This document shows positions 1 through 62,858 of a stretch of 64,000 bases of DNA, piece after piece. The stretch is from an uncultured virus (IMG/VR IMGVR_UViG_3300028844_005666) (Duplodnaviria; Heunggongvirae; Uroviricota; Caudoviricetes): the IMG/VR virus record IMGVR_UViG_3300028844_005666. One strand, written 5' to 3'. Numbering within the stretch: the first letter of the stretch is position 1; the number at the start of each line of letters is the position of its first letter. The notes under the pieces are model-generated. The model made no database searches, was not told the DNA's origin, and saw only the letters and a list, made by a program, of their open reading frames with translations. A program made the position numbers and the translations under genes.

Positions 1-285
1 CTCTGAGTCTCTATCTGCTCTTAAGTTATTAACAGCTGCTGATAAGTTACTTAACTTAACTGTATCAGAATCTAATCTAGCAATAAGTCCTGGATTAGTA
101 CCTGTGTCAATAATAACAGCCCATTTAGTAGCATCTGATCCAGGGGTTACACCTGAGAAGCCACCTGATACTGCTGAGTATGCAATACCTTCGTGATGTA
201 CTGTATCTAATTTTTGGTATGTTGTACCGGCGTTATAAGCGCCTTTAAAAACGAGTCTTACTCGTCCTAATATCTGAGTTGCCAT
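1..285 (-). CDS. Fibre-like virion protein, N-terminal part (runs off window)
   Basis: Not in ORF track; hand translation MATQILGRVRLVFKGAYNAGTTYQKLDTVHHEG...ARLDSDTVKLSNLSAAVNNLRADRDSE; purine-rich leader and TATAAATA upstream. Confidence 0.8.
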   Translation of the reverse strand, partial: MATQILGRVRLVFKGAYNAGTTYQKLDTVHHEGIAYSAVSGGFSGVTPGSDATKWAVIIDTGTNPGLIARLDSDTVKLSNLSAAVNNLRADRDSE

Positions 286-361
286 TTTCCTTTACCCCTT
301 TTGTTCTGGTTGGAAGCCCTGCCACTTTCGTGGTTCTAGCTCAGTAGCATTAATGCTGTTT

Positions 362-369
362 TATTTATA
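362..369 (-). promoter_or_regulatory. T4-type late promoter TATAAATA
   Basis: Exact TATAAATA on minus strand in the intergenic gap upstream of the 285 gene. Confidence 0.7.
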
Positions 370-379
370 ATTATGCACT

Positions 380-637
380 CTAGTCGTCATCAGCTAAATG
401 TGCAGCATAAGCAGTTTTAATTTCATCTGTCCAAACACCGTTTGCTATATTTTGCACTTCTGTGCTTTCATTAGATAAGCCATCTGCACTTATGTTTGGT
501 GAAACTATGTGTCTTGAAAAAACTCGACTTATTTCTGTACCATCTCTTTTAATGACTGTTGCAGTTCTAACTTGTATAAATTTATACGGCCCTACCACTT
601 CAATTTTATCTTGTATTGTTTCTTCTGTTAATGCCAC
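380..637 (-). CDS. Small tail-fibre-associated protein (possible chaperone)
   Basis: 85 aa, DKIEVV...QVRTATVIKRDG.EISR pattern; lies directly after a fibre gene. Confidence 0.6.
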   Translation of the reverse strand: MALTEETIQDKIEVVGPYKFIQVRTATVIKRDGTEISRVFSRHIVSPNISADGLSNESTEVQNIANGVWTDEIKTAYAAHLADDD

Positions 638-655
638 TTTCTACTCCTATAATTA

Positions 656-2194
656 TTAGAACGTCATGTATGTTATACCTATGGTAAACCTATCATTGGT
701 TGCCATATGAGAGTTGTTAAGAGTTCCTGCCGATGTATTATTCTCAGATGACCTAAATGATCCAACAGATGCATCAGTTGAAACATAAAAATTAACAAAA
801 TTACCAGAATTATGATCCGGACCTTGTGCACCAACTCCATCAAAAGCAACTGAACCAACAGACCTATCACTTAAATCTGCGCCATTACCTGTTGCAAATG
901 GTAAACTTATATCTATAACTCCGTTTGGACTACTTTCACCAGTTATATGTAATTGACCTTGCAAGTGAACCATTCTACCAATTTTTACATATGACAATTT
1001 TGTAGCACTATCTCCAAGAGTATAGCTACCACTTGTCCTACCTGTGACTGTAGGGGTATATATACCTTCTTCATAATCATCAAGCAGTTCACCGGTCATA
1101 CCAGTAGCATCACTTGTGGCACTAAAATCTATACCATGACCATTTGCTACTATAACGTTGCCATCAGTTAGAGTTAATCCATTGCCTACAGTTACTGTAC
1201 CATCAACTTCTAATCCTGTACCATTAATTAATTGAAGTGTGTCGCTATTAAATCTTGCACTAATATTATTTGAGCCAGCTTTCTTATGAGTTATTTCAAT
1301 AATACCATCTTCAGTTCCGTCACTAGCGTCTTGTATTTTTCCTGTAATTTTTGCATATACTATTTCTTGGTTAGCATCATTTTCACCTTTGAACTTTATT
1401 TGACCTAAGTAATCTGCGTCGGCTACACTAGAACTATTACGTTTAAGTGTAATCACTGGACCTGCATTATTAGAATCTTCAGTTGTAGTAACTAATATAC
1501 TATCATCTGTAGTTGTGTTATTAACAGTTAAAGTTTGGAATGTGTGATCTGAATCTATACCACCTAAACCAGCTATGTTAGCTGTATTAGTATTTGTAGC
1601 TGCTTTTAATGATTGTATTATTATACTATCACTGTCTAGATCTGCTCTCGTCTTAGTTGCTAATGATTGAATAGCTGCGCTGTCTGAATCTAGCCTGTTT
1701 GTAATTTCACTTATTTTTGATATCTTTATCGAATCTGAATCTCTATCAGCTCTAAGAGATAATATAGCACCACCAACTGAGTCTAATGTATCGTTACCAG
1801 TTAAGAATAATATCTGTCCATCAGAGTCAATAGTCAAAGTACCTGAATTTGCTACATCATCATTTGTGTTTAATAATATTTGACCATCACTGTCGACTAC
1901 TAAAGTACCTATTTGTCTATCAGCATCATCAGAATCTAATCTGTTTATTAAACCGTCTACTTTGTTTTGTAAATTTGCGACTTTAGTTAAGTCACTATCT
2001 TCTATTTCGGCAACAGATGCGAAGGCAAGTGAACCAGAGACAACCTTTAAAATTTGATTGTCAGAACCAATAGTTGAGGGAATACTAACGTTACCTACAG
2101 TAAGTCCTTTAACGGTTGTACCGCCTGAAGTAACGAAAAGGTCAGAGTCTCCTACACGAAGACCGTTTTTTATCATAAAATTTTTTTGTGCCAT
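656..2194 (-). CDS. Tail fibre-like protein: DSD-rich coiled-coil N-half, beta-rich C-half
   Basis: 9 DSD in the first ~220 aa; LDDYEEG.YTP and Y.KIGRMVH motifs typical of phage fibre C-termini. Confidence 0.7.
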   Translation of the reverse strand: MAQKNFMIKNGLRVGDSDLFVTSGGTTVKGLTVGNVSIPSTIGSDNQILKVVSGSLAFASVAEIEDSDLTKVANLQNKVDGLINRLDSDDADRQIGTLVVDSDGQILLNTNDDVANSGTLTIDSDGQILFLTGNDTLDSVGGAILSLRADRDSDSIKISKISEITNRLDSDSAAIQSLATKTRADLDSDSIIIQSLKAATNTNTANIAGLGGIDSDHTFQTLTVNNTTTDDSILVTTTEDSNNAGPVITLKRNSSSVADADYLGQIKFKGENDANQEIVYAKITGKIQDASDGTEDGIIEITHKKAGSNNISARFNSDTLQLINGTGLEVDGTVTVGNGLTLTDGNVIVANGHGIDFSATSDATGMTGELLDDYEEGIYTPTVTGRTSGSYTLGDSATKLSYVKIGRMVHLQGQLHITGESSPNGVIDISLPFATGNGADLSDRSVGSVAFDGVGAQGPDHNSGNFVNFYVSTDASVGSFRSSENNTSAGTLNNSHMATNDRFTIGITYMTF

Positions 2195-2258: not shown

Positions 2259-2266
2259 TATTTATA
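2259..2266 (-). promoter_or_regulatory. T4-type late promoter TATAAATA
   Basis: Exact match overlapping the stop codon of the upstream gene. Confidence 0.6.
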
Positions 2267-3854
2267 ACGTTATTTGCTCTATGATTTTATAAGTAGTAGA
2301 TTGAGCAGACGCAGAAGTGATTCTTAGTCTTACATTTCCACCATTTATATCAGCACTTATAGCAGTAACCGGAATTGATCCAGTGTATACTATACCGTAC
2401 TCAACAAAAGCGACGTTAGTACCATCATGAGTAAGAAGTACTTCTGATACTTGATTCTCACCTGATACTGTGTTAGCAGCAGTTACTAGTACTTTCATTC
2501 CTTTAAAGGAGTTTGAAGCACGTGTAGTAACTGTTGTTGCATCAGTACTAGTAGTAGTTATTGTAGCTGGAGCCACAACCGCTATACCACCAGTATTAGC
2601 TGCATTAACACCTAACGTAATATCATTATTAAATTTAGATTTCAGAGAATCTTCTGAATCTTGATCGCCTCTTAACGCATCAACTACTCTCTGTAATGCA
2701 GATATCTTTACAGTATCTGAGTCGAGTCTAGCTAAGGCATCATTTACTCTTGTATTAACAAGTTGTACTTGCGTCTGGTCAGAGTCTAATCTGGCCTTTT
2801 GTAAGTTACTTGATAACACCAAAGAAGAGATAACAGCTTGATCAGAATCTAATCTTGAGATAAATTCTTTTCTAAGAGCTGCGATTCTAGGATCTTCAGA
2901 GTCTAATCTTGCAATAATATCACTTTGCTTACCTTGCAATAATTGTAACTTAGTCGAATCAGAATCACGATCTGTTCTTAATGTAGTAATAGCGTTACCA
3001 ACAGAGTCAATTGTATCTGATCCTGTTAATACCATCAATTCACCTTCTGAGTCAACAGCAAAGACACCGTTCTCAGTAAAGTGTAATCTACTATTAATAA
3101 AGTCAGAGTCAATCATATTTGAGATTGAGTCAGAATCTATTATCTTCGCTCTTGTATTCAAATCATCTAAAGCAATTTGAATAGCTTGTATTTTAGTACT
3201 ATCAGAGTCTAAGTCTGCTCTTAATGCTGCTGTGTCAGCTGACGTACCAGCACCTAAAGCTTGAATCCTTGCGCTATCTGAATCAAGTCTTTGTCTTGTT
3301 TGCGAAGCAAACGTTTGAAAGGCTGAATGATCAGAATCTAATCTAGGATAAACTTGTGATCTAATAGTCTGTTGAACAATAGAATCAGAATCTAATCTGC
3401 CGATAAGAGCAGCAACTTTTTGGTCTAATTGAAATGTTAACAGGTCTGAGTCAGCAAGGTTTAATAAACCAGCTGCTATTTTAGCTTGAAATAAGTCATG
3501 ATCAGAATCCATTCTTGTATGGATAACATCTACTTGACCTCGAATAGTCTGAACTCTAGTTGAGTCAGAGTCTACTCTCGCAGCTAATTGGTCTTGCTTA
3601 GTCTTTAAAGCTTGTATAACGGTACTATCAGATTCATTATCTGCTATAATCTGGTTAACGTTACTTGCTGTAAGATATCCTGCGTTATTAGTTAAAAGCG
3701 AATTATTATCACCAGCTTTGATAACAGCGTTATCGCCAATGGTAATTGTACTTCCGGTTTTTAACTTTAAACTAGTATCTCCTACAAGACTAAAATGCAG
3801 GTCGGAATCACCGACCAATAATCCTTGACGGATTCTAAAGTCTCTATTTGCCAT
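2262..3854 (-). CDS. Coiled-coil fibre/whisker-like protein with RLDSD repeats
   Basis: 14 DSD and 3 DSE, many spaced 18-25 aa apart; C-terminal beta domain (SEVLLTHDGT...EYG). Confidence 0.7.
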   Translation of the reverse strand: MANRDFRIRQGLLVGDSDLHFSLVGDTSLKLKTGSTITIGDNAVIKAGDNNSLLTNNAGYLTASNVNQIIADNESDSTVIQALKTKQDQLAARVDSDSTRVQTIRGQVDVIHTRMDSDHDLFQAKIAAGLLNLADSDLLTFQLDQKVAALIGRLDSDSIVQQTIRSQVYPRLDSDHSAFQTFASQTRQRLDSDSARIQALGAGTSADTAALRADLDSDSTKIQAIQIALDDLNTRAKIIDSDSISNMIDSDFINSRLHFTENGVFAVDSEGELMVLTGSDTIDSVGNAITTLRTDRDSDSTKLQLLQGKQSDIIARLDSEDPRIAALRKEFISRLDSDQAVISSLVLSSNLQKARLDSDQTQVQLVNTRVNDALARLDSDTVKISALQRVVDALRGDQDSEDSLKSKFNNDITLGVNAANTGGIAVVAPATITTTSTDATTVTTRASNSFKGMKVLVTAANTVSGENQVSEVLLTHDGTNVAFVEYGIVYTGSIPVTAISADINGGNVRLRITSASAQSTTYKIIEQITL

Positions 3855-3889: not shown

Positions 3890-4312
3890 TTAATTACGTA
3901 TTAGTGTAAGATTAATCTTGAACTCGGTTTGGTTAGCACTAGTGGTTTGTGATCTAAGTTCACATAAACTTCCATTTATTACAGAACTAAAATCTACAAA
4001 GCGACTACTACTTGAAAATAATGTAGCATACTCTGTAATATCAACTGAATCACTATCGCAAAATAACAAGACTTCAGTCACCATCTTGTCATCAGTGATT
4101 TTATCCGTGGCTTGTATCACGAACTTAGCGGAACCATAGCTTAACTTACTAAACTCTGCTATCTTTCTAACGGATGAAGTAGCCGTTGCCGTAGCTCCGG
4201 AAGCGTAAGTAAAGACAGCGATGTCACTGTCTTGGAAATCTATTTTATCTACAAGCATGTTTTCAATAGTTAAAACACGGTTATTTAGATTGTACTTTAG
4301 CTGGCGCGCCAT
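3890..4312 (-). CDS. Small virion protein related to the C-terminal domain of 2262..3854
   Basis: TEVLLFCDSDSVDITEYA aligns with SEVLLTHDGTNVAFVEYG. Confidence 0.6.
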   Translation of the reverse strand: MARQLKYNLNNRVLTIENMLVDKIDFQDSDIAVFTYASGATATATSSVRKIAEFSKLSYGSAKFVIQATDKITDDKMVTEVLLFCDSDSVDITEYATLFSSSSRFVDFSSVINGSLCELRSQTTSANQTEFKINLTLIRN

Positions 4313-6590: not shown

Positions 6591-6598
6591 TATAAATA
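6591..6598 (+). promoter_or_regulatory. T4-type late promoter for the oxygenase operon
   Basis: TATAAATA followed 4 nt later by the ATG at 6603. Confidence 0.7.
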
Positions 6599-6602: not shown

Positions 6603-7325
6603 ATGAGCAATACTACTAAGTTACTAATAAATCATATGTTTTGTCACTTAATGATTATACCAGGAGCCATTTATGGTCAATGGTGGATGTTTCTTGCTGC
6701 GTTAGCATGGTGGTACGTTGTCGCTATCGTATCTATATCTGGCGGTTATCATAGATTTTATTCTCATAGTTCATTTGAAGGTAATAAGTTCTTTGAAGTA
6801 TGTGTAAATATATTAGGTATCTTTTCAGGAGCAGGTCCTGCATTAACATGGGCTGCTACTCATAGACAGCATCATGCTTATTCAGATACAGATTTAGATC
6901 CTCATAGTCATATTAAAAAAGGCAAGTGGTCTGTTTATGTAAATACTTGGGGGTATGATTTTCAAATTAAAAGAAGATTTATAAAAAAGTATCTTAGAAA
7001 TCCTATACTAGTACATTTTTATAAAAACTATTTTATGTACAATCTTTTTATTATGGTAGCATTCTTTTTAGTAGATCCTTTATTGTTAGTTTTCGGATAT
7101 TGTATGCCAGTTGTTTTTGCATTTCATGGTTATGGGTTGCTTAATGTATTAGGGCATTCGAATGGTAAACCTACTAACAGTTGGTTTGCTAATCTTCTTA
7201 CTGCTGGTGAAGGCTGGCATGAAGAGCATCATAAGAAAGCTGCACATTATAGGATTGGACGAGAAAAAGGTCAATGGGACCCTACTGCGTGGTTTATAGA
7301 ATATGTTATGGGCAAAAAAGTATAA
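6603..7325 (+). CDS. Membrane fatty-acid desaturase (delta-9-like)
   Basis: His boxes HRFYSH, HRQHH, GEGWHEEHH; hydrophobic segments. Confidence 0.9.
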   Translation: MSNTTKLLINHMFCHLMIIPGAIYGQWWMFLAALAWWYVVAIVSISGGYHRFYSHSSFEGNKFFEVCVNILGIFSGAGPALTWAATHRQHHAYSDTDLDPHSHIKKGKWSVYVNTWGYDFQIKRRFIKKYLRNPILVHFYKNYFMYNLFIMVAFFLVDPLLLVFGYCMPVVFAFHGYGLLNVLGHSNGKPTNSWFANLLTAGEGWHEEHHKKAAHYRIGREKGQWDPTAWFIEYVMGKKV

Positions 7326-7911
7326 GTTACTTTCATTAAAAAATTACGAAGATCAATTTCTATATTACATTAATAGGTTTAGTAAAGAGCTAACTAGACA
7401 TGATGATATAAAATGGTTTGATACTAGTACTAATTGGTGTCTTCAAAAGACATATAAAAATTATCTAGATTGGTCTTTTGTAGTTACAGATGATGATGAA
7501 GAAGAGTTGATAGCATTTGCTGCAGTACAAGACTTTGGTAATGATGTTGCTAGAATATTGACTAGATTATATTACAATCCAAAATACAGAAGAAAAAATA
7601 TTAGATATGAATCTAATGAATTAACTCCTGGTAATGTAATTGCTAAACATCAAGTAGATAATTTCAATAATAAAAACCATTTATTTTTTTCTGTAGAATA
7701 TATTTACAGAAGACCTACTATAATAAAATTAGGAAAGAAGTTAAATAAATTTTATGGTCATGAATGGAACACACAACCAGGTTTATACAAAACTTATAAT
7801 AAAGATGAAAAAGGAGCTTGGCAATCTGTGATAGCTTACAGTTTTGTAAAAGAAAAATTTCCTTTAGATCATATGACTTTATTAGATTGGAAAGACAAAT
7901 ATGGCGGATAA
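7303..7911 (+). CDS. GNAT-like acyltransferase
   Basis: LIAFAAVQ...ARILTRLYYNPKYRRK resembles GNAT motif A. Confidence 0.5.
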   Translation: MLWAKKYKLLSLKNYEDQFLYYINRFSKELTRHDDIKWFDTSTNWCLQKTYKNYLDWSFVVTDDDEEELIAFAAVQDFGNDVARILTRLYYNPKYRRKNIRYESNELTPGNVIAKHQVDNFNNKNHLFFSVEYIYRRPTIIKLGKKLNKFYGHEWNTQPGLYKTYNKDEKGAWQSVIAYSFVKEKFPLDHMTLLDWKDKYGG

Positions 7912-8575
7912 AGAATACAAGCAATATGGTTTTAGTAATGCTAGAATAAGAGCAAAAGGTGATAGAGGACCTACTAGACACAAACTTACTTCGTTTAAAC
8001 ATATTACCAAAGCACCTGAAAATGTAATGGACGAGATTAAACGTATTATAACTGAGATTAAAGAAGATGATTTAGGTACAGATAAGTATCAGATATCTAA
8101 TAGCTATGATCTTAAAAATAGTTTTAATGCTACTGGTGGTTATAGACAAATACTATTACAGAGAAATACTATACAAGGTTCTGATATAAACGAAGAAACT
8201 AATTACAATGACTGGCGTAATGATACTGATGTAAGTGTAATTAAAAACTGGTTAGAAGAAACATTTGGTGAAGTTTTTAGAGCTAGAATATCTGTAATGC
8301 CTCCAGGGCATGAATTGTTCTGGCATATTGATACTGATACTTCTGTATTATGTAGGATGCAACTAGCAGTTGATACAGTAGGTTCAGAGTTTCAGTTTAG
8401 AAATAGAATAGAAGGTTATAGGGCTCTTACTATGGAAGACGGACATGCTTATTTTGTAAATACAGGATGGTCTCATAGAGTTGTTAATAATGATAAGTGG
8501 AGAGTAGTTCTTATATTTGGTATTGAGTATAAGAATATACCTGATAAGGAGGCGTTATGGATAGGAAACCATTAA
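7901..8575 (+). CDS. Aspartyl/asparaginyl beta-hydroxylase-like 2OG-Fe(II) oxygenase
   Basis: RARISVMPPG..LFWHID, NTGWSHRVVN..R: HxD...H triad. Confidence 0.8.
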   Translation: MADKEYKQYGFSNARIRAKGDRGPTRHKLTSFKHITKAPENVMDEIKRIITEIKEDDLGTDKYQISNSYDLKNSFNATGGYRQILLQRNTIQGSDINEETNYNDWRNDTDVSVIKNWLEETFGEVFRARISVMPPGHELFWHIDTDTSVLCRMQLAVDTVGSEFQFRNRIEGYRALTMEDGHAYFVNTGWSHRVVNNDKWRVVLIFGIEYKNIPDKEALWIGNH

Positions 8576-9420
8576 AGAACATTGGGTACGAATATGATAT
8601 AGATTTTAATTCTATGTCTGATGAAGATATAAAATATTTTGGAAGACAAATAGTAAAAGATAATGTCATACTAGTACGTAATCAAACTATTAATGAAGAA
8701 AGACTTTTATATATTTTAGAACAAATAGGTAATGTACTTAAACCTAATCAGTTTTTTATGCATCCAGATTATCCAGGATTGTTTAGAGTTACTAACGAAA
8801 GAAAAGAAGGCGAAAAGATTGGTATATTCGCTGACAAAGAACTAGATTGGCATAGTAATGGTAATGGAAGAAAGAGTGGCACTGAAGCATGTGTTATGCT
8901 ATACTGTCTAAAACCAGGTGAAAATTCTGTAACATCTTTCTGTGATACTAGACAAGCATATAATGATCTATCAAAAGAAGATAGACATTATTACGATAAT
9001 ATAGATTGTAATTTCAAGTTTGAGAATAATACCTTTTATAAATTAGAAGAAGATGATAAAGAACTAGCTATGTTTCAAGGAGGTGCTAGAGCGTTTAAGT
9101 ATGGTGTAACTAAACCATTAGTATATACTCACCCTTATACAAAAGAAAAAGGTTTGTATTTTACTTTTCATTATATTAGAGATATGTGGAAAAGAATAGA
9201 AGATGGTGATGAAGATCATGAACTTGTAAATATGGAAGAGCATATGGTCAAGTTAAAGAAACATGTATTTCAAGATAAATATATGTACCATCACGACGAT
9301 TGGAGACCAGGTGATCTAATATTCATGGATCAGTTTCATAGTATACATAAGCGAAATGCTGTCGAAGGTGATAGGTTTTTATATAGAGCTAGTTTTGGGT
9401 ACGAGAATTGTCAACTGTAG
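8557..9420 (+). CDS. TauD/TfdA-family dioxygenase
   Basis: WHSNG, TSFCDTRQAY, PLVYTHPYT, WRPGDLIFMD...HKR. Confidence 0.85.
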   Translation: MDRKPLKNIGYEYDIDFNSMSDEDIKYFGRQIVKDNVILVRNQTINEERLLYILEQIGNVLKPNQFFMHPDYPGLFRVTNERKEGEKIGIFADKELDWHSNGNGRKSGTEACVMLYCLKPGENSVTSFCDTRQAYNDLSKEDRHYYDNIDCNFKFENNTFYKLEEDDKELAMFQGGARAFKYGVTKPLVYTHPYTKEKGLYFTFHYIRDMWKRIEDGDEDHELVNMEEHMVKLKKHVFQDKYMYHHDDWRPGDLIFMDQFHSIHKRNAVEGDRFLYRASFGYENCQL

Positions 9421-11079: not shown

Positions 11080-11542
11080 ATTTTTAAGTGATAAAGATAT
11101 AGATACATTATTAAATTATTCTAAAACTGCTAAGTGGAAAGAACATTATAGTACAAAGACAGGTGTTAAAACACCTTTAGAGTTCACTCCAGTCACACAA
11201 GAAGTTTTAGATATATTAGAAGATAGTCCTATAGATAATTTAAAGAAAAATAAAAATATAAAGATGATGTTAAGTAGATTACAACCTGATAGTATACAGG
11301 ATTGGCATACAGATGGCAAGCAAAATAAAAGATCTAGTGTTGTTATTCATCCGTTAACTAAAAATTATGCTCCTTTATATACTAGAAATAATATGAGTGA
11401 TGGTCCTGTAATTTTAAATACTTTAGAAGAACATAAAATAGTTAATAACGATAATTTAAGAATTAACTTTCAGATATGTTACGACGAAGATATTGAAGAG
11501 GTAAAAAGTAAATGGATAGGTTATCAAAAATCTATGATGTAG
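11054..11542 (+). CDS. 2OG-Fe(II) oxygenase-like protein
   Basis: WHTDG, LNTLEEHKIVN..RINFQ. Confidence 0.7.
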   Translation: MKNLIPLVKFLSDKDIDTLLNYSKTAKWKEHYSTKTGVKTPLEFTPVTQEVLDILEDSPIDNLKKNKNIKMMLSRLQPDSIQDWHTDGKQNKRSSVVIHPLTKNYAPLYTRNNMSDGPVILNTLEEHKIVNNDNLRINFQICYDEDIEEVKSKWIGYQKSMM

Positions 11543-16883: not shown

Positions 16884-16884
16884 A

Positions 16885-50680: not shown

Positions 50681-50682
50681 AA

Positions 50683-54242: not shown

Positions 54243-55646
54243 CTAATTATTAGGTGTTGAAGTTTCGGTTCCATGTAATGCGTGAGCAGGATCTGTATGA
54301 GTATGACTAGTTAGAGTTATACCTGTACCTCCTCCATTTTTAGCAGTTACTTCACTTCCATTTCCGTTAAACGCTAATGTAGCTACTCCTGTTACGGTTT
54401 CATCTTTCGTTCCCGTTACAGTTTGAGTTTCATTACCTCCTATAGTAGTAGTGACATTAGTATCTACTTCTGTAATCATATTAGCAGGTGTATCAATCTT
54501 TATATCTTCTTTAGCAGTTACTTTATATTCACTTTCAGTAAAATTAGTAAACATATTTTTTGAATAGATATTAGTTCTATTATCTGTGTACAAGAAATAA
54601 TCGCTATCTATGTATAAAGTATTAGTAGCTCCTACAGTAGTGTCTCTTCTTCTTACTACATCTCTTGTTTCATCATTACCTATTCTAGTAGCATAATCTT
54701 CAGCTATATTAGCAGAGTAATCTTGATCGATTTCCATATTAAGAGAGTTACCTATCTTAATTTGTTTATCTCCTGCAATATCTTCTGTATAATTACCATC
54801 TACTTCTAAGTGATAATTACCTTCTACTTTTAATCTCATATCTTTTCTGATAGTCATGTTCATATCACCTTTGACTATCATATTATTATCTTCAAAAATT
54901 ACTTCAAAATTATCACCTACTACTCTTACAGTTCTAGTTCCATCTGCAATTATTTCTTCATAGGTACCTGCAGTATGATATTGTAATAAACTTTCATTGT
55001 TAGGAGTATCATTTACCTCAAATATATGACCTCTTTCAGTTTCTTTAACTTTATTATATGGATAGTCTGGGAGACTACCGCCGTAAGGGTATGGTTGATC
55101 CCACTTTACAGCTTCATAATAAGATGAATCTTTATCTGGAGCTACGGATGTAACCTTAGGAGGTGATGCTGTATCTACACTTTCGACTCTTGTATTAAGT
55201 CTGTCTAAATGATTATCAGTTTCTTCTACATTAATTTTTTGAGCATTAAAAGGAACATCATTTTCTCTAGTACCTGGTCCTGCAACTCTTACAGGATTGA
55301 CTCCCATAGGGTCATTGAATCCTTTAGTCTGATCCACTTCACCTGGAATCTCTCCATGAAAAGTTCCCATAACAAACGGCTGTTGCATATTAGCACCATC
55401 AGTAAAGAAACCTACAACTGTTGAACCTTGAGCTATACCAGTAGGTGAATCTCCTATACCTGCAACCGAAGCTGATGTAACAGGCATCATTACTTGTGCC
55501 CAAGGTAGACTATCAGTAGGTATTGCATTCTTATCAGCTGAGTGTATACTATAACATCTTACTCTAACTCTCCCCATTTCCATAGGGTCGTTTCTGTCTT
55601 CTACTACTCCTATAAACCATGTAAAATTATTTCCAAAATAACTCAT
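54243..55646 (-). CDS. gp5: Baseplate central spike, no lysozyme domain
   Basis: WFIGVVEDRNDP..GRVRVR OB fold, YPYNKVKETERGH, beta-helix repeats, HTH tip. Confidence 0.92.
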   Translation of the reverse strand: MSYFGNNFTWFIGVVEDRNDPMEMGRVRVRCYSIHSADKNAIPTDSLPWAQVMMPVTSASVAGIGDSPTGIAQGSTVVGFFTDGANMQQPFVMGTFHGEIPGEVDQTKGFNDPMGVNPVRVAGPGTRENDVPFNAQKINVEETDNHLDRLNTRVESVDTASPPKVTSVAPDKDSSYYEAVKWDQPYPYGGSLPDYPYNKVKETERGHIFEVNDTPNNESLLQYHTAGTYEEIIADGTRTVRVVGDNFEVIFEDNNMIVKGDMNMTIRKDMRLKVEGNYHLEVDGNYTEDIAGDKQIKIGNSLNMEIDQDYSANIAEDYATRIGNDETRDVVRRRDTTVGATNTLYIDSDYFLYTDNRTNIYSKNMFTNFTESEYKVTAKEDIKIDTPANMITEVDTNVTTTIGGNETQTVTGTKDETVTGVATLAFNGNGSEVTAKNGGGTGITLTSHTHTDPAHALHGTETSTPNN

Positions 55647-56851
55647 TCGTACGCTCCGTTAGATGCTGACTCCCTTATACATTGTAAAACTGTAAAAGAT
55701 GTTTTACTTGTAAATACTTGTCTCTTTGACATAGTAACATATTTACCAGACAATGCATAGTCAGTTATATCTTGTCCTTCTCTAGGTGATGCTTGTGGTA
55801 TTTTAATTTCAATTAATTGACCTATATCAGTAATAGGATTACCAGGAATTGTGATATCTAATATATTGTTGCTTTTTCTATAATTAGTTTTTGTAATTCT
55901 ACTTACGTCATTTAACTTATCTAATCTTTTAGCTTCATCATCAGAAAATCTAGAAATAGAATCCATTCTCTTTCCTATTCCAGGTGGAGTATATTCGCCC
56001 CATAAAGACTTTTCATTGTCTGATTTTTCTTTGTTAAATTTAAATTTATGTTCAATAGTTTGAAAAGATTTAGAAGTCGTATTATAATCAAATAATGAAC
56101 CTGCTAAGTAACCATTCTTAGCTGTTTCTAATAAATCATAGCTTTGATTAGCTTCATATTTGTTAATTGTTATCATATCAGATTTAGTTTTTTCTGTAGG
56201 GTGAAATTTTTCTGAACCATATACAAATTTTTGAGGTTCATCAGTAACTGAATTTAATCTTTCTAATGGAGTGAAATTATATTTACCGAACGAATCTTGA
56301 AAAAAGAAAAATCTTGTATCTGATATTTTTGATTTTGCTCTACTAGCTAACCATAATATAGAATTAATTGGAGACCAATCTGGTATTATAACTGATTCTG
56401 AGTTTAAACTATCATCCCATAAACCTATTTTTTCAGTTGAGTCTTTGTGTTGGTTAAAAATATCTTTAGCTATATTACTTAAACTACCTTCGAAGTGTTT
56501 ACTAATAGTAAAAAAATTAGACTTTATAAGTAAGGGTGAATAGCATTTTAAACTGTAACTTTGTTCATGATCATTATTTTCAATATCATTAATTGAACCT
56601 ATAACAGCATTCCAAGTTTTAATTTCATTACCATATTCAATTTCAATATTAATATTTTGTCCACCTCTTAGAGGTAATTTATTAATAAGGTTTCTATTGT
56701 CTCTTACAGTCACAACAATAGTATACGTAGGTTGAGTTACATATGCGTTTACGTTGATTTCTAGAACAAGTTTTGTGATATCAGCTTCTTTACCATCTTG
56801 TCCTTTAATATCAACTTTCTTTAACCTGTATGCGCCAACGTAATCACTCAT
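55643..56851 (-). CDS. Baseplate hub protein (gp27-like)
   Basis: Position before gp5; IPDWSP...FFFFQD, IPGN...GQLI, LSGKY. Confidence 0.65.
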   Translation of the reverse strand: MSDYVGAYRLKKVDIKGQDGKEADITKLVLEINVNAYVTQPTYTIVVTVRDNRNLINKLPLRGGQNINIEIEYGNEIKTWNAVIGSINDIENNDHEQSYSLKCYSPLLIKSNFFTISKHFEGSLSNIAKDIFNQHKDSTEKIGLWDDSLNSESVIIPDWSPINSILWLASRAKSKISDTRFFFFQDSFGKYNFTPLERLNSVTDEPQKFVYGSEKFHPTEKTKSDMITINKYEANQSYDLLETAKNGYLAGSLFDYNTTSKSFQTIEHKFKFNKEKSDNEKSLWGEYTPPGIGKRMDSISRFSDDEAKRLDKLNDVSRITKTNYRKSNNILDITIPGNPITDIGQLIEIKIPQASPREGQDITDYALSGKYVTMSKRQVFTSKTSFTVLQCIRESASNGAYE

Positions 56852-57497
56852 TCAAGATCTTTCTTAGTTCATCGTATAATTGTGTAACAACTGTTTGTTT
56901 AAGAATTAAAATAGTCCTTTTACTCTCATTAAGATCTTCTTCGTATGAACGAATAGATACCGGCGAAGCAGTAGGCGCGGTAATAGATCTTCCGAAAGCA
57001 TCTTTTCTACTAGAATTGTTAACTATAAAATCGTACGTGTATTCATTTTTATTACTATCAACAAAATGATGAGGTCTAGCTGTAGCTTTATCACCTATTA
57101 CTGTAGTATAATTGTTACTACTAGTACCCACAAAATCAATAAAGTTCATAGTTTCTTGTCTAGTTAAAGTAACTGGATTACTATCAGAATCTTTTTGTAC
57201 TTTATATTTTTGGTATAATTTTTCATCTAATGCAAAACCACTTAATGGCATATCTAGGTAAGGGCTAATCATATCATTAGCTAACATTACAGCCCAATGT
57301 AAGTTAACATCTCCGTAATATTCATTAGCTATAAGCTCAACTGTATCACCATCTCTAATAGTATGGGTAATAAAGTTAGCTCTTTCATTCTTAACAGATT
57401 CAATAATAGCAGGTTTGATAGATATGTTTTTCAATTGTCTATAGACGTTATCTGGGAACTGATAATTTATATATGGAAATTGTTCAAAGTAAGCCAT
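56844..57497 (-). CDS. gp53: Baseplate wedge protein
   Basis: YFEQFPYINY, IRDGDT.E.IA..YYGD..LHW..LAN, YE...NESKR.I. Confidence 0.9.
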   Translation of the reverse strand: MAYFEQFPYINYQFPDNVYRQLKNISIKPAIIESVKNERANFITHTIRDGDTVELIANEYYGDVNLHWAVMLANDMISPYLDMPLSGFALDEKLYQKYKVQKDSDSNPVTLTRQETMNFIDFVGTSSNNYTTVIGDKATARPHHFVDSNKNEYTYDFIVNNSSRKDAFGRSITAPTASPVSIRSYEEDLNESKRTILILKQTVVTQLYDELRKILNE

Positions 57498-58528
57498 TAT
57501 GGTGTTCCTGTTCCGTCAGGTGCTCTAAATGGAGTTGAGCCTGTATTACCAGCTAAACCTCTGTTACTTCCACCAACTGTTTGACCTGCACCTTTAAGGT
57601 CAGCATTTAATACTCCACCTCCAAATGAATCTCTGAATAATGGTTCTACTTCTGTATAAACTATATCTAAGTTTACATCCATTGGAGATCCGTCTGTATG
57701 TCTATGTGCACCACCAGCAGCTCCATAAGTTACATTCACTGATGTAAGAACAGATCTATTAGGGCTCTCTAAAAATTTATTTTCACCACCATACCACTTA
57801 TAGTTTATATCCCACTGTAAAGGTATTTCTACAAATTGAAATTCACCAGCTGGATCTCTAGCAGGTAATTGATAGTACATAAACGAATCACATATCTTTT
57901 TAATAAGTTCTGATTCCATAGGGTCTTTAGGTGCAAATTGAAAGCTATAGTTAAATGTTCTATGAGTCATACCTTGGAACAAAGTAAATGAGAAAGGATT
58001 AGTTACTTGACCTGTAGCAACCTGAACTACGTTTCCTGCAGCTCCTATTAAGTCTGTAGCTGCACCAGCTAATAATTTTTTAATACCGCTTATCTGCTCA
58101 TCTCTTCCTGAACTAGTTCCTAATGCAACAGCAGCTGCTCCTGTAGCTCCAATATTAGCTTGAGAATAATTAGCTGATTGAACTGCTAATAAATTTTGAG
58201 GCATAGGTAAAGATATATGACCATAAGTCTTAACACTATCTCTTCCTGTTTGCATTTTCATACCACTTACAACGCTTTTAAGCTTCCCAATATTTCCAGG
58301 TAGTTGATTTTTAATTTTATCAACGATACTATTTACCCCTGGAGCAGGTAAGTTAGGAATGTTAGGTATACCTAAACCACCAATACCACCACTAGCAGGA
58401 TTCTTAACAGTCTTAGTTGCACCGAATTCTACTTGTCTTGGAAAGAATTCAATTACACCTGGTATTTCTTGAGTACCCAATTCACCTGGGTATGAATAAC
58501 TAAAATATCTTGGCTTAGATGATGGCAA
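57497..58528 (-). CDS. gp48: Baseplate tail-tube cap
   Basis: LPMP, NPF...FQGM.HRTFNYSFQFAPK...ES, VLTSVNVTY; TTG start with AGGAG SD. Confidence 0.8.
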   Translation of the reverse strand: MPSSKPRYFSYSYPGELGTQEIPGVIEFFPRQVEFGATKTVKNPASGGIGGLGIPNIPNLPAPGVNSIVDKIKNQLPGNIGKLKSVVSGMKMQTGRDSVKTYGHISLPMPQNLLAVQSANYSQANIGATGAAAVALGTSSGRDEQISGIKKLLAGAATDLIGAAGNVVQVATGQVTNPFSFTLFQGMTHRTFNYSFQFAPKDPMESELIKKICDSFMYYQLPARDPAGEFQFVEIPLQWDINYKWYGGENKFLESPNRSVLTSVNVTYGAAGGAHRHTDGSPMDVNLDIVYTEVEPLFRDSFGGGVLNADLKGAGQTVGGSNRGLAGNTGSTPFRAPDGTGTP

Positions 58529-58563
58529 TATTGACTCCTAAATATATTATAAGGTATTTATGC

Positions 58564-59148
58564 ATGTATCACAAAGGAAAATTCACAGATATTAAACACC
58601 CCGACAAGTATGTAGGTGATATAAGAAATATTACTTACAGGTCTCATTGGGAAAGAAATGTTATGCGCTGGTTGGATAACAACAATGATGTTATTGAATG
58701 GGCTTCTGAAGAGGTTTCTATTCCATATCAACACCCTATCTACAATAGAAGAGCAAAATATTACCCTGACTTCTTTATGAAGTTTAAAGATGGTAAGATT
58801 AAAATTATTGAAGTGAAGCCTAAAGAACAAACTGAAAAGCCTATGCAAAATAAATCTAAAAGAATGACTAAAAAGTATGTTCATGAAATGATGGTATGGG
58901 CTGTTAATTGTGAAAAATGGGATGCGGCATTAAAATACGGTGAACAATTTAATTATAAATTTGAAGTATGGACTCAAGATACATTAAAAGAAATGGGTAT
59001 ACTTAATTGGGAAACTGATAAGACTGTTCTTTTAGCAGAGAGAACAGCGTCAAATAAACCTAAACTTCAAAGTATATTTAAAGCTAAAAAGAAATATAAA
59101 ACCAGTATATCTAGAAATAAAAGACCTAGACCTAAACGTAAGAGTTAA
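58564..59148 (+). CDS. gp4: Head completion nuclease
   Basis: KY.GD..ITYRS.WE, WASEE..IPY, YYPDF, IEVKP; start moved to MYHKGKF. Confidence 0.92.
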   Translation: MYHKGKFTDIKHPDKYVGDIRNITYRSHWERNVMRWLDNNNDVIEWASEEVSIPYQHPIYNRRAKYYPDFFMKFKDGKIKIIEVKPKEQTEKPMQNKSKRMTKKYVHEMMVWAVNCEKWDAALKYGEQFNYKFEVWTQDTLKEMGILNWETDKTVLLAERTASNKPKLQSIFKAKKKYKTSISRNKRPRPKRKS

Positions 59149-59276
59149 TCTTTATTACATTTCACGCAGCTACATCCTGTGCATATATCATTAGGGCACT
59201 TTTGACATTCTTCGTTACAATGACTCTCATGTAAACATTTTTTGCATAATGTATTATGGTATTGCTGAGAATCCAT
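59145..59276 (-). CDS. 43-aa Cys-rich, metallothionein-like peptide (not in ORF track)
   Basis: MDSQQYHNTLCKKCLHESHCNEECQKCPNDICTGCSCVKCNKD; GGAGG SD upstream; fills the intergenic gap. Confidence 0.75.
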   Translation of the reverse strand: MDSQQYHNTLCKKCLHESHCNEECQKCPNDICTGCSCVKCNKD

Positions 59277-60933
59277 CTGGTCCCTCCCCGAAGTTATTTG
59301 TACTTTCATACGGTTTAATTTTTACTTGAGTTTCGTTTTTAGTCTGAATTGAGTTATCAATATTATTATTTTGTGTGGTCTGTCCACTTTGCATTCTCTG
59401 TTGATCTTTTAATATTTGATTCTTCTGAGCATCAGTTAAGTTATCAGGAGATGCTTCATTACCGTCACCTATTTGATTTTTAGAACCTAGAATATATTTG
59501 TTAAGAAAACTCTTACCGCCCTCTGTATTCTTAGCTAGATCGTAAGCTGTATAACCTAGATCAGCAACCATTGCTGCAGTCATTAACCAACCTACACCAG
59601 GTACAAATAATCCAGCAGCTCCCATTGCTGCTTTTCTTAATATAGATTTACCAGCAACTTGTGCTGCTTTACTTGTTAAATTTTTACTTGCATTAGGAGT
59701 TAACTTTTTAGCTGCGTCTAATGCTGGATTAGTAGGTTTAGGTACATTCAGTCCTTTAGGTGCTGCTTTATTAGCATTGTAAGTTTGACCACCGACTTTT
59801 TTACCATCAATTGTAGTGCCGGCAGGATATTGTTTAATGTTTGGTTTTGGTTTTGTATTTACATTTGGTTTAGGATTAGACTTAGTTAATTTAGTGCTTA
59901 AGTCTTTACCTCTTTTCATAAACTTACCTAAAAGAAGACCTACTGCTCCTACCATACCTAATACTTTAAGTAAAGGCAAAGCTAAAAAAGCAACTAAAAT
60001 AGCTGATAAAATAGGAAACTCTTTTACAAAAGCTTTTATCTTACCTAATATACCATCAGCTTCAAATACTTTTTTTATACTTTTAAAAGTTCTTTCAAAA
60101 AAATCACCAATACCAGTAAAGAAATTCTTAATTTTTATAGCTAAAGCTTTTTGTTCTTCTTCGTCATAACCTAAAATGTTACCAATAACTCTAGTAAGAC
60201 CTGATATAAGTATCTCTCCAAATGAAGCATTTTCACCAAACCATTCAGAAGCTTTTTTTAATCCTTCTAAAAATGATATAGCTGCAAAAGCTGCAGCGCC
60301 TCCTAGAATAGCAGTTTTAAAAGTGTCTTGTATACCTTTAAGTGCTTTAGTAATACCTGTTAAGTCACCAATTTTAGAAAATGTTTTTTGAATACCTAAG
60401 CTAGTCTTTTTTAAAGTTTCAAATACTGCATCTCTTTTCTTCTGTCTTTGAGCTGTATCACCAGCAGTATCGCCAGTAGGAGATGCTTTTAACTTTGCAG
60501 TTTGTGCTTGTAAATCTTTTTTAGTAATATCAGCTTCTTTACTAGCTGCATCAGCAGATAAAAATCTACCCTTATCATCTCTAGGATCAGGAGACTGTAA
60601 TCTCTCAAGTTTTTCAGATAACTTTTTAACAGTATCAGCTAACTTGTCTCTTGTTTCTTTTTGTGCAGCTAACTTTTCAGGGGAAGCAGCTCTGTTGAGA
60701 GCTTTATCAAAGGCAACTGCCATACCTTTGAAAGTAGCATTCATAGTTATATTAAAACCTTTACCTAATGCAGTCGACGCATTACCTGCTAGTTTATCAA
60801 AAGAAGGTTTAGATGACCCACTCCTTCTTTTTTCAGCAGTTTCGTTAGTATCTTTTTTAGAGTTTTGATAATTCTGCTCTTTAAGTATTCTAACTATTTC
60901 TTGTAAGGACTGTGCTTCGGTTTTATCTGCCAC
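59254..60933 (-). CDS. Putative tape-measure-like protein
   Basis: Ala/Lys-rich helical protein with hydrophobic segments, directly after gp26/gp51; GTG start. Confidence 0.5.
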   Translation of the reverse strand: MADKTEAQSLQEIVRILKEQNYQNSKKDTNETAEKRRSGSSKPSFDKLAGNASTALGKGFNITMNATFKGMAVAFDKALNRAASPEKLAAQKETRDKLADTVKKLSEKLERLQSPDPRDDKGRFLSADAASKEADITKKDLQAQTAKLKASPTGDTAGDTAQRQKKRDAVFETLKKTSLGIQKTFSKIGDLTGITKALKGIQDTFKTAILGGAAAFAAISFLEGLKKASEWFGENASFGEILISGLTRVIGNILGYDEEEQKALAIKIKNFFTGIGDFFERTFKSIKKVFEADGILGKIKAFVKEFPILSAILVAFLALPLLKVLGMVGAVGLLLGKFMKRGKDLSTKLTKSNPKPNVNTKPKPNIKQYPAGTTIDGKKVGGQTYNANKAAPKGLNVPKPTNPALDAAKKLTPNASKNLTSKAAQVAGKSILRKAAMGAAGLFVPGVGWLMTAAMVADLGYTAYDLAKNTEGGKSFLNKYILGSKNQIGDGNEASPDNLTDAQKNQILKDQQRMQSGQTTQNNNIDNSIQTKNETQVKIKPYESTNNFGEGPDGFSAIP

Positions 60934-61084
60934 TTTGCTTTGCTTCCCTCTCTAAGCGTTGGTTCTCTTCTTTAACGTGCGTTTCTAACATATGAAAGTA
61001 TACATCCCTCTCCCACGGTAACATCATTTCTATCTCTTCAAATGACCATTTATGAAACTGTACACACGCAAAAACATTTTTCAT
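60923..61084 (-). CDS. gp51: Baseplate hub assembly catalyst (not in ORF track)
   Basis: MKNVFACVQFHKWSFEEIEMMLPWERDVYFHMLETHVKEENQR... Confidence 0.85.
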   Translation of the reverse strand: MKNVFACVQFHKWSFEEIEMMLPWERDVYFHMLETHVKEENQRLEREAKQSGR

Positions 61085-61116
61085 AAATGTTACCAAGTTG
61101 ATGTGGGCGAGGTTAA

Positions 61117-61821
61117 CTAAAAAAAACTTTGCATACCCGTCAAACTCTCTTTATTTATATGCTTACAGTGAGTACATTCAAATTCATAATCAATATGAGC
61201 TTTTGGTATTGACTCATAATAATTATTCAAAGTTACGAATTGATCAGAGTTTAATTGATTTAAAAGGTCTCTTAAATCATCCTTATCAGTTTCTGTAACA
61301 TCAATAATTTCACCGTTATTTTGAATTTGAGCAATAGTGTTAGTGAATATCTCAATAACATTATCAACTTCGCTTCTTTCTTCTTTAAAAGAATGTAGCA
61401 TATCAATTTTAGGAGGATGCATAACAAAAACTAATTCATCACTTATAACAATTTCAGGTTTGAACTCTTCGTTTTCTTGAACATACACAGTATCAAGTTG
61501 TATCTCTATTTGATTGTCACCTTCACATTTATTACATTTTATCGTAACATTAACTGATTCACCAACTGATTTAGATCTTATCTTAGTAAAAAGATACTCA
61601 ATATCATAAAAAGTTAAATTTTCAGCATCTAAACCTGTACATGAACTAATAATATTTTTCATAGCTGTAGCCATTTGAACTGAGTCTTTTGATTCAGCTG
61701 CAACAAGAAGTATTTTTTCTTCAGCTACTCTAAAAGGTCTATATGTAAATTTTTCTTTAGATGAAGGAACTACATCGCTGTACTCTGGCTGAGCAAGCTT
61801 AATATTTTTTATCGCGCCCAT
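61117..61821 (-). CDS. gp26: Baseplate hub subunit/chaperone
   Basis: YRPFRVAEEKILL, DIEYLF.KIRSKSVGE, CxxC x2, GMQSFF end. Confidence 0.92.
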   Translation of the reverse strand: MGAIKNIKLAQPEYSDVVPSSKEKFTYRPFRVAEEKILLVAAESKDSVQMATAMKNIISSCTGLDAENLTFYDIEYLFTKIRSKSVGESVNVTIKCNKCEGDNQIEIQLDTVYVQENEEFKPEIVISDELVFVMHPPKIDMLHSFKEERSEVDNVIEIFTNTIAQIQNNGEIIDVTETDKDDLRDLLNQLNSDQFVTLNNYYESIPKAHIDYEFECTHCKHINKESLTGMQSFF

Positions 61822-61828
61822 TTTTTCC

Positions 61829-62392
61829 TCATATTATATTTGTATAGTTTTTTATGAACTCTTTAAATTCATAACCATCTATATATACTCCAGTCTTAGA
61901 TGTCTTAAGATAAGTAATATCTAAGGGAGTTAAATCATACAAAACCTTTTTAATATCAAGACTACTAGCAGTACTATCGCTATCAGTATAAATTCTTGTT
62001 ATCGATTTAGATAATGTATCTATTTCATCACTATCAGTAAAGTCTTCTTTAAAGTAATGATGTTCTGTTTCAAAAGCTATATTATCACATTTAATAATAT
62101 TTTCATGCTCGTCTTCTGAATCTCTTATTTTAGTCTTTAATGAACCAACAGTAAGTTCTAATATTTTACCAAATGTATATTGAATTACAATATTTGATTG
62201 AATATGAATATTTTTTAAATCACTATTATTACCTACTATTTCTAAGATATAATCAGCAATAGTTTCTTTATCTAACTTAATAACAGTTAAAAACTTTTTA
62301 TATTCTGAATAAGACATTCCTGTAATCCATATTTGATCAACATATGGAGATCTATGTATATCTACAGGAGTTCTCTTATAATTAATTTCCAT
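61829..62392 (-). CDS. Hypothetical protein
   Basis: Likely start MEINYKR at 62392; 2 DSD and 1 DSE. Confidence 0.55.
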   Translation of the reverse strand: MEINYKRTPVDIHRSPYVDQIWITGMSYSEYKKFLTVIKLDKETIADYILEIVGNNSDLKNIHIQSNIVIQYTFGKILELTVGSLKTKIRDSEDEHENIIKCDNIAFETEHHYFKEDFTDSDEIDTLSKSITRIYTDSDSTASSLDIKKVLYDLTPLDITYLKTSKTGVYIDGYEFKEFIKNYTNII

Positions 62393-62858
62393 CTTTAAAC
62401 GCCTTATCAATTTTCTCTTGATTCTCTCTAATCTTTTCTGCATTAGATTGAATAACAGCATCTTGAGATGCTTGAGAAGCTGCAATTAATTCTTTTATTC
62501 TTTTACCTTTAGTTGCATCACTATCTAGGTGTAAGTCTTTATTAATAATCTTTTCTATTTTTTGAGTAGCTAATCTGTCATTCGCAATATATCTCCAGGT
62601 ATAACCCTTTTCAGTATATACACCGAATACAGTTTGTGATAAACCTATCTTAACAATTATAGCATCTTTACCATCTAGAATTATATGATCGCCCTCATTG
62701 AACGATTGATTACTTTTGAACGCCCAACCTTTGGCAGCGTTCGTAGCGAAGTCTTTTAGCCATATCGCTATTATCACTGATGTGATAATACCTATCCATG
62801 GTAGTATAAAAGCAGTAATCTCTAGACTCATTGAGCTTATATTTCCAATATTGTCCAT
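62382..62858 (-). CDS. MscS-like small membrane protein
   Basis: TM helix, then FNEGDHIILDG..AIIVKIG. Confidence 0.55.
   Translation of the reverse strand: MDNIGNISSMSLEITAFILPWIGIITSVIIAIWLKDFATNAAKGWAFKSNQSFNEGDHIILDGKDAIIVKIGLSQTVFGVYTEKGYTWRYIANDRLATQKIEKIINKDLHLDSDATKGKRIKELIAASQASQDAVIQSNAEKIRENQEKIDKAFKDGN

Follow-up and report, generated by a model that had tools for sequence, protein, structure and literature searches.

The window analysed here is a 64,000-nucleotide stretch of DNA from an uncultured virus (IMG/VR IMGVR_UViG_3300028844_005666), and the feature under study is the tripeptide Asp-Ser-Asp (DSD), which recurs in many of the structural proteins encoded there. The window holds the tail, neck, and baseplate module of a T4-like myophage, with a G+C content of about 31 to 35%, and this module is split by a 20-kb enzyme island with the terminase genes on one side and the neck genes on the other. 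The nearest cultured phages by gp6 identity are the pelagimyophages HTVC008M and Mosig and the methylophage Melnitz (35 to 37%), followed by the cyanomyophages (about 33%). Neither a megablast search with the gp7-gp6 region against 50,697 phage records nor a tblastn search of the phage collection with the fibre-like protein 2262 (genes are named here by their leftmost coordinate) returned a match. The phage is also represented by two viral-contig records: G001, which overlaps the window on its right half, and G011 (69.5 kb), which extends beyond the left edge of the window into further fibres and the sheath, tube, portal, and head genes. Two other records recur below, namely, G012, a 152-kb, 85%-complete relative, and G010, a 31-kb fragment from a member of the DSD-rich clade.

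Translation of 66 open reading frames (ORFs) in the window yielded 89 DSD, making it the most frequent tripeptide. Amino acid composition predicts 7.4, and 2000 within-protein shuffles gave a mean of 8.1 (standard deviation, 2.9) and a maximum of 19; the first-order expectation from DS and SD dipeptides is 21.7. The other five frames of the same genes contain 0, 0, 2, 2, and 0 DSD. Five fibre-like proteins with a common 18- to 21-residue repeat (consensus, approximately I-A-x-L-R-A-[RD]-L-DSD-S-x-[KA]-I-Q-A-L) hold 35 of the 89, and because the other 54 stand against about 5 expected, one repeat family does not account for the excess. Eight neck and periphery proteins contribute 49 of these 54 (expected 3.1), and the remaining ORFs contribute 5 (expected 1.8). 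No DSD was found in the 26 island ORFs (6,950 amino acids; expected 1.6) or in the terminase, gp6, gp25, gp48/54-like, and gp26 proteins of the window. A prior sequence-only reading had counted about 89 DSD by hand, protein by protein, had guessed that composition would predict a handful, and had reported none in the island enzymes, terminase, gp6, gp25, gp48/54, or gp26. Its total proved exact, every per-protein count and every zero was reproduced, its guess was right, and the enrichment held in the shuffle test that it had proposed. The features of the window are listed in Table 1.

Table 1. DSD-bearing genes, negative controls, and candidate enzyme genes in the window
Feature	Coordinates	Strand	DSD content or supporting evidence
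Fibre-like gene, 3' part (cut by the window edge)	1..285	-	1 DSD, fibre-repeat type; 3 DSD in the full ORF in G011
Fibre-like protein	656..2194	-	9 DSD (expected 0.57)
Fibre-like protein, 18-21-residue repeat ..RL-DSD-SxxIQxL..	2262..3854	-	14 DSD (expected 0.68)
Small fibre-connector-like protein	3890..4312	-	2 DSD
Enzyme island	6603..27033		0 DSD; internal negative control
Candidate reader 3, predicted GT-A paralogue (N-terminal half aligned)	11955..12524	-	hhalign 94.4%
Candidate reader 2, predicted GT-A paralogue	12497..13060	-	hhalign 95.6%, 160 columns, DLD motif aligned
Conserved cassette member, possible class I methyltransferase (lead)	13371..13997	-	Language-model neighbours
Candidate reader 1, predicted GT-A fold glycosyltransferase	14370..15095	-	Invariant D90-x-D92, pLDDT 92.9, Foldseek
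Neck-side protein, no known family	28598..29908	-	9 DSD (expected 0.41)
Protein with T4 gp9/gp10-like N-terminus	29908..31332	-	6 DSD; PF07880, 30.8 bits
gp15 tail sheath stabiliser	31345..32337	-	7 DSD, 4 within a private 49-residue insertion
gp14 neck protein	32334..33371	-	5 DSD
Structural protein (phrog_358 C-terminal part)	34273..36126	-	4 DSD
VrlC-like large structural protein	36896..41536	-	1 DSD and 3 DSE; 3-10 DSD in relatives
gp8 baseplate wedge protein	41550..43016	-	4 DSD
gp7-like baseplate wedge protein	43016..46297	-	13 DSD (expected 0.79) and 7 DSE
gp6 inner baseplate wedge protein	46297..48105	-	0 DSD in the window and all relatives; virion negative control
Fibre-like protein	49087..49974	+	9 DSD, repeat-type and isolated
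Inner baseplate span, largely DSD-free	54243..62858	-	Five scattered DSD
gp5-like	54243-55646	-	1 DSD
gp53-like	56844-57497	-	1 DSD
ORF	61829-62485	-	2 DSD
ORF	62382-62858	-	1 DSD

The recurrence is a property of the proteins. Fifteen different 9-mers encode DSD in the window, and its serine codons (66 TCN and 23 AGY, or 74% TCN) are no different from those of other serines (66% TCN; P = 0.16). Both codon families are used in 17 of the 48 alignment columns in which DS[DE] is present in four or more clade members, which indicates that the serine was kept while its codon jumped between families two mutations apart. The sequence GANTC is created by 66 of the 89 DSD, and the 23 that use AGY do not create it; by codon phase, GANTC occurs 172 times in phase 0 versus 19 and 31 times in the other phases. 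The sequence-only reading had argued from varying serine codons that selection works on the protein and not on a DNA repeat. The four codon strings that it cited are in place, and codon variety, codon switches, and confinement to the coding frame all agree with it, as does the presence of DSD in unrelated proteins with its statement that the motif occurs in unrelated folds.

Specificity is narrow. Among the DxD tripeptides of the window, x = S alone is enriched (89 versus 7.5 expected); counts for the others are roughly as expected (L, 16; N, 10; G, 7; A, 5; T, 4, with 7.4 DTD expected). DSE is mildly enriched (17 versus 6.0 expected), and there is no enrichment of ESD (3), DSN (4), or NSD (9 versus 7.3 expected). 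Close relatives display 25 distinct single-residue departures from DSD, including 19 from Asp to Glu at position 3, 4 at position 1, and 1 at the serine, so that the Asp at position 1 is nearly invariant and the third residue is D or E. The motif is Ser-specific and directional, D-S-[D>E]. Flanking preferences at 1,074 distinct nonfibre sites of the clade do not exceed 2.2-fold, the strongest being for Gly following the motif, and the data fit a short autonomous tag. The sites are isolated, with few DSDS or DSDxxDSD pairs and a broad spacing distribution, and many DSD are paired 4 to 14 residues apart. The DSD-rich proteins contain 8.8% D and 3.9% E, versus 6.1% D and 5.6% E in other structural proteins.

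The marked proteins are the fibres, the gp9/10-like protein, protein 28598, the gp13-like protein (2 to 3 DSD), gp14, gp15, the sheath, gp7, and gp8, with the VrlC-like protein marked more weakly. The sheath carries 5 DSD in each of two phages, all within residues 100 to 312, which presumably correspond to the outward-facing part of T4 gp18. No DSD was found in the major capsid protein, scaffold, prohead protease, or tail tube of G011 and G012 or in the hub, and the portal (0 to 1 DSD), gp5, and gp53 (1 each) are nearly unmarked. Judged from these counts, the motif appears to be restricted to the tail exterior, with the capsid, tube, inner baseplate, and enzymes excluded. The original description of a stamp across the virion proteome is apt for the tail exterior proteins but too broad, since the capsid, tube, and inner baseplate are without the motif; likewise, its placement on the exposed virion surface holds for the exterior of the tail, meaning its fibres, neck, sheath, and baseplate rim, but not for the head, whose capsid proteins lack it. 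A gp14 model built from 56 sequences is poor (predicted local distance difference test [pLDDT], 51) and places 2 of 5 DSD at a helix-break-helix and 3 of 5 in coil. Searching the sequences of solved structures with fibre 2262, protein 28598, and the island-side proteins p27621 and p27033 gave chance-level hits alone (LntA, E = 0.49; T-cadherin, E = 0.18; transaldolase, E = 0.21). Two G012 proteins of no known family, encoded far from the structural module, also bear the motif (L133 16231-16878, 4 DSD in 216 residues; L134 1968-2930, 5 DSD in 321 residues) and may be unrecognised tail-surface or decoration proteins.

All 14 loci found through gp6 (49 to 100% identity) are enriched, by about 8- to 13-fold. 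A gp15 search yielded 80 loci; all 30 at ≥55% identity show 9.9- to 23.3-fold DSD, and the 50 outgroup loci (32 to 40% identity) show 0- to 5.4-fold, with 29 of them devoid of any DSD. DSD is again the commonest tripeptide in G012 (146 versus 17.6 expected). Observed and expected counts in the same modules are 2 and 5.5 for HTVC008M, 2 and 3.8 for P-HM2, 4 and 4.4 for Mosig, and 1 and 4.1 for Melnitz. The motif thus appears, from the sequences compared, to mark one uncultured clade of marine T4-like phages. A few outgroup lineages retain 2 to 6 DSD at fixed positions in gp14, gp15, and the sheath. Outgroup loci L093, L094, L096, L090, and L117 keep individual DSD at fixed positions in these proteins without general enrichment, as in ..PDSDYGFTTT.. 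near the gp15 C terminus and ..LDSDGHTFIAKYPG.. in the sheath; such fixed sites may have an older structural role, or the motif may have grown from them.

Sites were aligned in seven proteins with three to seven clade members each. Fourteen of the 82 DSD columns are common to all members and 17 are private to one, and the load per protein is stable across members (11 to 13 in gp7, 3 to 6 in gp8). Measured against relatives with approximately 31 to 67% identical aligned proteins (gp7, about 34%; gp15, about 66%), a DS[DE] occupies the same column for 42% of the window's DSD and lies within six columns for 57%; other tripeptides are kept at a rate of 12%. New sites come either by substitution in polar columns (SNN, TDG, ENE, and DTT in outgroups) or with clade-specific insertions. 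The 49-residue insertion at gp15 residues 253 to 300, which combines four DSD with a Lys/Arg-rich tail and is confined to this phage and near-identical records, is a recent gain in which the motif is already plentiful. The earlier question of whether DSD sits in lineage-specific insertions is thereby answered in part; some sites do, including the four in gp15, but others arose by substitution. Retention above background combined with turnover at constant load is what would be expected of a locally read tag, not of fixed structural sites.

We propose that DSD may be a serine-centred modification tag, most likely for O-glycosylation in the cytoplasm, and assign this reading a probability of about 0.4. 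D-S-[D/E] would act as a sequon whose serine is modified in the cytoplasm before or during tail assembly. Acceptor surfaces would be the outer region of the sheath, the neck (gp13, gp14, and gp15), the baseplate rim (gp7, gp8, and the gp9/10-like protein), the VrlC-like protein, and the fibres. Candidate enzymes would be three paralogues with a predicted GT-A glycosyltransferase fold and a methyltransferase-like protein, which form a conserved island core near the neck genes, and the variable radical SAM and oxygenase genes around this cassette could tailor the sugar. The analysis establishes the enrichment and its origin in the protein, the Ser- and direction-specificity, the limits to one clade and one compartment, the turnover of sites, and, by model, the GT-A fold of the neighbouring gene product; that anything is attached, that it would be a sugar, and that these enzymes would act on the motif are points that we infer. 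The more specific proposal that the GT-A cassette adds an unusual sugar, shaped by the radical SAM enzymes and oxygenases, to the serine of 90 to 180 sequons per genome, all on the tail exterior and with a lineage-specific third letter (D/E, or A/D in a sister group), is doubtful.

By analogy, the closest precedent for the acceptor appears to be the SdgB/SdgA system that acts on staphylococcal Ser-Asp adhesins. SdgB O-GlcNAcylates the free tripeptide DSD, as described in PMC8561734, and nearly all 60 DSD in a test substrate were modified according to PMC3794999. There, the acceptor serine lies between two Asp residues, as the serine does in the 89 DSD of the window, and the system is Ser-specific, cytoplasmic, and directed at surface proteins. 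Its substrates, in contrast, are long tandem SD arrays in one disordered region, whereas the phage has about 90 isolated tripeptides in folded, unrelated proteins; its enzymes are GT-B glycosyltransferases with a DUF1975 insert, whereas the phage candidates are GT-A, as judged here from sequence and a model. As SdgB has a GT-B fold and works on tandem repeats, the phage motif does not belong to the SdgB system.

Glycosylation of phage particles has its own precedent in mycobacteriophages, whose virions, as Freeman et al. reportedly described in 2023 in Cell Host Microbe, are glycosylated by phage-encoded glycosyltransferases, with the capsid and tail tube said to be decorated at C-terminal Ser/Thr-rich stretches. 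The glycosyltransferase genes, here predicted ones, lie beside structural genes in both cases, and the two would share the idea of a phage that puts sugar on its own particle. The mycobacteriophage system differs in host group and phage type and marks the capsid and tube, both of which have 0 DSD here, where the tag is an exact tripeptide on the sheath, neck, rim, and fibres. The general O-glycosylation system of Bacteroidota is periplasmic and uses the sequon D-(S/T)-(A/I/L/V/M/T). It resembles the phage motif in having three residues with Asp directly before the hydroxy residue, and related phages that bear the cassette show D-S-A together with D-S-D. Its sequon, however, accepts Thr and has a hydrophobic residue or Thr in third place, whereas DTD is not enriched here (4 versus 7.4 expected) and the third residue is acidic, and phage tails assemble in the cytoplasm, not the periplasm. 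The D-S-A occurrences are found in lineages with the GT-A cassette (L146 1-2616, L183 2-5314, and their neighbours), whose fibres are enriched in D-S-A plus D-S-D; they contain 30 DS versus 11.3 expected (13 followed by A and 9 by D) and 45 versus 14.0 (12 by A and 8 by D), which suggests a family of related D-S-x tags. A literature search, whose coverage left out most subscription journals, found no published DSD motif in phage tails and no sequon in myovirus tails.

The island contains nine radical SAM genes, four of which (19160, 22059, 23338, and 25612) are full-length matches to the N-terminal twitch family NF033640 (193 to 399 bits versus a cutoff of 170). It further encodes a TauD-like protein, two Asp/Arg-hydroxylase-like cupins, a desaturase-like protein, a QueC-like protein, a small RIO1-like kinase, and a SufT/PaaD-like iron-sulfur (Fe-S) assembly protein (13045-13380). 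Nishimura et al. (2017; PMC5332604) described marine T4-like environmental viral genomes in which as many as 12 radical SAM genes accompany PaaD-like genes and others related to Fe-S, the same gene makeup as in this island, and they read these as Fe-S-related metabolic genes. The radical SAM and twitch passages of that paper are silent on any DSD motif, and the paper nowhere uses the word glycosyltransferase. Across the islands of the clade, homologues of ORFs 11955, 12497, 13371, and 14370 recur, none of which has a Pfam or NCBIfam match; ORF 11955 is the best conserved island gene, with 50 to 55% identity in relatives.

Language-model neighbours of ORF 14370 are nucleotide-diphospho-sugar transferases. 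A structure model of its product (built with 58 of 211 homologues) reached a pLDDT of 92.9 and a predicted template modelling score of 0.90, and Foldseek returned 339 PDB matches at E ≤ 0.001, the top ones all GT-A (LgtC [1.5e-8], alpha-1,3-galactosyltransferase, GlyE, LARGE1, the UGGT catalytic domain, and glycogenin). The motif D90-x-D92 is invariant in the 58 aligned homologues and is aligned in both paralogues, ORFs 12497 and 11955 (hhalign probabilities, 95.6% and 94.4%). The ORF 14370 product is accordingly modelled as a GT-A fold glycosyltransferase, and ORF 13371 may encode a methyltransferase. The three GT-A paralogues (11955-15095) sit between the terminase and neck genes, a layout that is conserved in the clade.

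The marked neck-side genes are always separated from the island by two genes of no known family and with 0 DSD, p27621 (27621-28553, minus strand) and p27033 (27033-27596, minus strand). Of the 30 gp15 loci within the clade, 13 reach at least 2 kb past the p27033 homologue, and all 13 contain island homologues; a GT-A gene falls within the flank in 9 of these, and the other 4 have the gene order of the window, with the GT-A genes farther on. An enzyme-first search found 80 viral loci encoding this GT-A family, and the shared cassette comprises two or three GT-A genes, 13371-like and 13987-like genes, and twitch radical SAM genes. The p27621/p27033 pair accompanies the cassette in motif-free lineages as well, and these constant partners could possibly be its true target.

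Several observations weigh against DSD as a modification tag and the cassette as its reader. All support for modification comes from sequence. The cassette adjoins p27621/p27033 homologues in many other lineages, and of 26 cassette loci whose structural side spans at least 1,000 amino acids, 5 satisfy a strict threshold (a minimum of 5 sites and a DSD count 4-fold or more over expectation) and 7 fall below 2-fold; by eye, about 10 of the 26 show D-S-[D/A] at 3- to 11-fold, and about 16 show no enrichment of DSD or DSA. Mosig, which has no DSD enrichment, encodes distant GT-A homologues. Conversely, in G010 the terminase lies directly beside a p27621 homologue and a 90-residue ORF that has no match in the window, and this DSD-rich 31-kb fragment has no island at that site and no GT-A gene anywhere. 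Since the cassette occurs in motif-free lineages and G010 is without it, the cassette is a candidate and not a proven reader. G012, with the strongest enrichment, has no radical SAM genes in its island and two elsewhere, and radical SAM content varies widely in the clade; strong enrichment without island radical SAM genes implies that these enzymes are not needed. No SdgB-type GT-B with DUF1975 was matched by Pfam or NCBIfam in the searched window ORFs. Another possible role for the island is in remodelling the host envelope or lipids, or in modifying DNA, and its desaturase-like and LpxO-family-like genes would fit this.

Other enzymes of the island were considered as modifiers and rejected. 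Radical SAM/SPASM-like enzymes, which might oxidise serine as sulfatase maturases do, were set aside. An Asp_Arg_Hydrox domain protein like the Asp/Asn beta-hydroxylase-like cupins (7901-8575 and 11512-11979) is also present in motif-free Mosig. The small RIO1/Bud32-like kinase (17900-18442, minus strand; 180 amino acids; PF01163, 26 bits) would on paper suit the role of an acid-directed serine kinase, but other clade members showed no homologue.

The main rival to a modification tag is that DSD binds cations, its carboxylates holding seawater Ca2+ or Mg2+ singly, in pairs, or between subunits and so stiffening the tail exterior and fibres. We regard this as possible though less probable. It would explain the acidity and pairing, given that DSD-rich proteins are Asp-rich and Glu-poor and that many DSD lie 4 to 14 residues apart. 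By our reading, the hydrophobic spacing of the fibre repeat places DSD at or near a coiled-coil core layer, where the second Asp would occupy a core position, and the few DSD of gp14, gp15, and the sheath that are conserved in outgroups behave as fixed structural sites would. There is a parallel in the HxH iron sites of trimeric phage fibres and spikes (T4 gp37, T4 gp12, and P2 gpV), which are likewise three-residue, x-spaced motifs recurring along fibres; DSD, like them, could line a threefold axis. Those sites, however, are His pairs with metal density confined to fibre and spike tips, whereas DSD has a fixed middle serine and extends to nonfibrous proteins. Known calcium sites of the DxD type leave the middle residue free, and in DxD/DxDxDG motifs Asn may replace Asp within a calcium-binding domain; here only Ser is tolerated between the Asp residues (DTD, DAD, DGD, and DND are not enriched), Asn does not substitute for Asp (DSN, 4; NSD, 9 versus 7.3), and no calcium-binding Pfam family was matched in 21 DSD-rich or related proteins. 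Of the two roles that the sequence-only reading had inferred, a modification sequon or a metal-binding tag, the second fits worse because only x = Ser is enriched and no calcium-binding domain was matched. It also leaves unexplained the different behaviour of positions 1 and 3 and the shifting of sites between lineages, which is unusual for structural metal sites.

A structural device without a reader, in which DSD is a helix N-cap or beta-turn and solubility element spread by drift and weak selection for acidic, hydrated tail surfaces, is unlikely. In its favour, the fibre-repeat DSD sits by our reading at an expected helix start, with DSD-SxxIQ resembling a capping box; the low-confidence gp14 model has its sites in coil or at helix breaks; and outgroup residues at DSD columns are polar and loop-like (SNN, TDG, and ENE). 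It does not account for the exact tripeptide at 12-fold excess, the exclusion of Thr and Asn, which are equally good caps, the constant number per protein despite moving positions, or the sharp on/off boundary of the clade. Rather more unlikely still is a tag for a protein partner, with a phage chaperone, a decoration protein, the phage's own stowed fibres, or a host surface component binding DSD patches. The marked proteins match the surfaces that the long fibres and whiskers touch in T4, and the familyless, DSD-free p27621 and p27033 always adjoin marked genes. That pair is also present in motif-free lineages, however, no candidate has a detectable binding domain, and three residues offer little for a specific contact between proteins. 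An artefact of composition or at the DNA level (a recurring 9-mer, a GANTC methylation site, or a homologous repeat family) is excluded despite the 35 of 89 DSD in fibre-like proteins with one repeat and the 66 of 89 that create GANTC, given the 15 distinct 9-mers, the 23 AGY-encoded sites, GANTC being a by-product of Asp-Ser(TCN) and not enriched in other phases, the 0 to 2 DSD in other frames, and the 54 sites outside the fibre proteins.

If the serine is modified, neither T4-like nor marine phages would offer an earlier example of a modification system for virion proteins that is defined by a sequon; it would involve about a hundred sites per particle, all on the tail exterior. Such a coat on the sheath, neck, and fibres would alter views of marine adsorption, particle stickiness, protease resistance, and host recognition, and it would give a purpose to large and puzzling radical SAM and oxygenase islands. 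Were the third letter lineage-specific, each lineage would wear its own glycan coat on the sheath, neck, rim, and fibres. If DSD binds cations instead, it would represent a novel, minimal metal site whose requirement for serine would lack an explanation.

Additional features of the window were noted. The T4 late-promoter word TATAAATA is strongly underrepresented (5 sites versus 18.6 ± 4.3 in shuffles), and its sites are too few to date island expression; one copy lies at 6591-6598 (plus strand), 5 bases ahead of the first gene of the plus-strand island operon, and two lie upstream of fibre genes, at 362 and 2259. One radical SAM gene is a single 412-residue ORF in the window (23338-24576) and two ORFs (100 and 282 residues) in the otherwise identical G011 (7883-9039), a difference due to sequence variation or to faulty assembly. 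Within the structural module, at 36127-36933 (minus strand) between the VrlC-like gene and gene 34273, a second membrane protein of the fatty-acid-desaturase-like kind is encoded (PF00487, 73.9 bits); homologues occupy the same position in relatives, odd company for virion genes.

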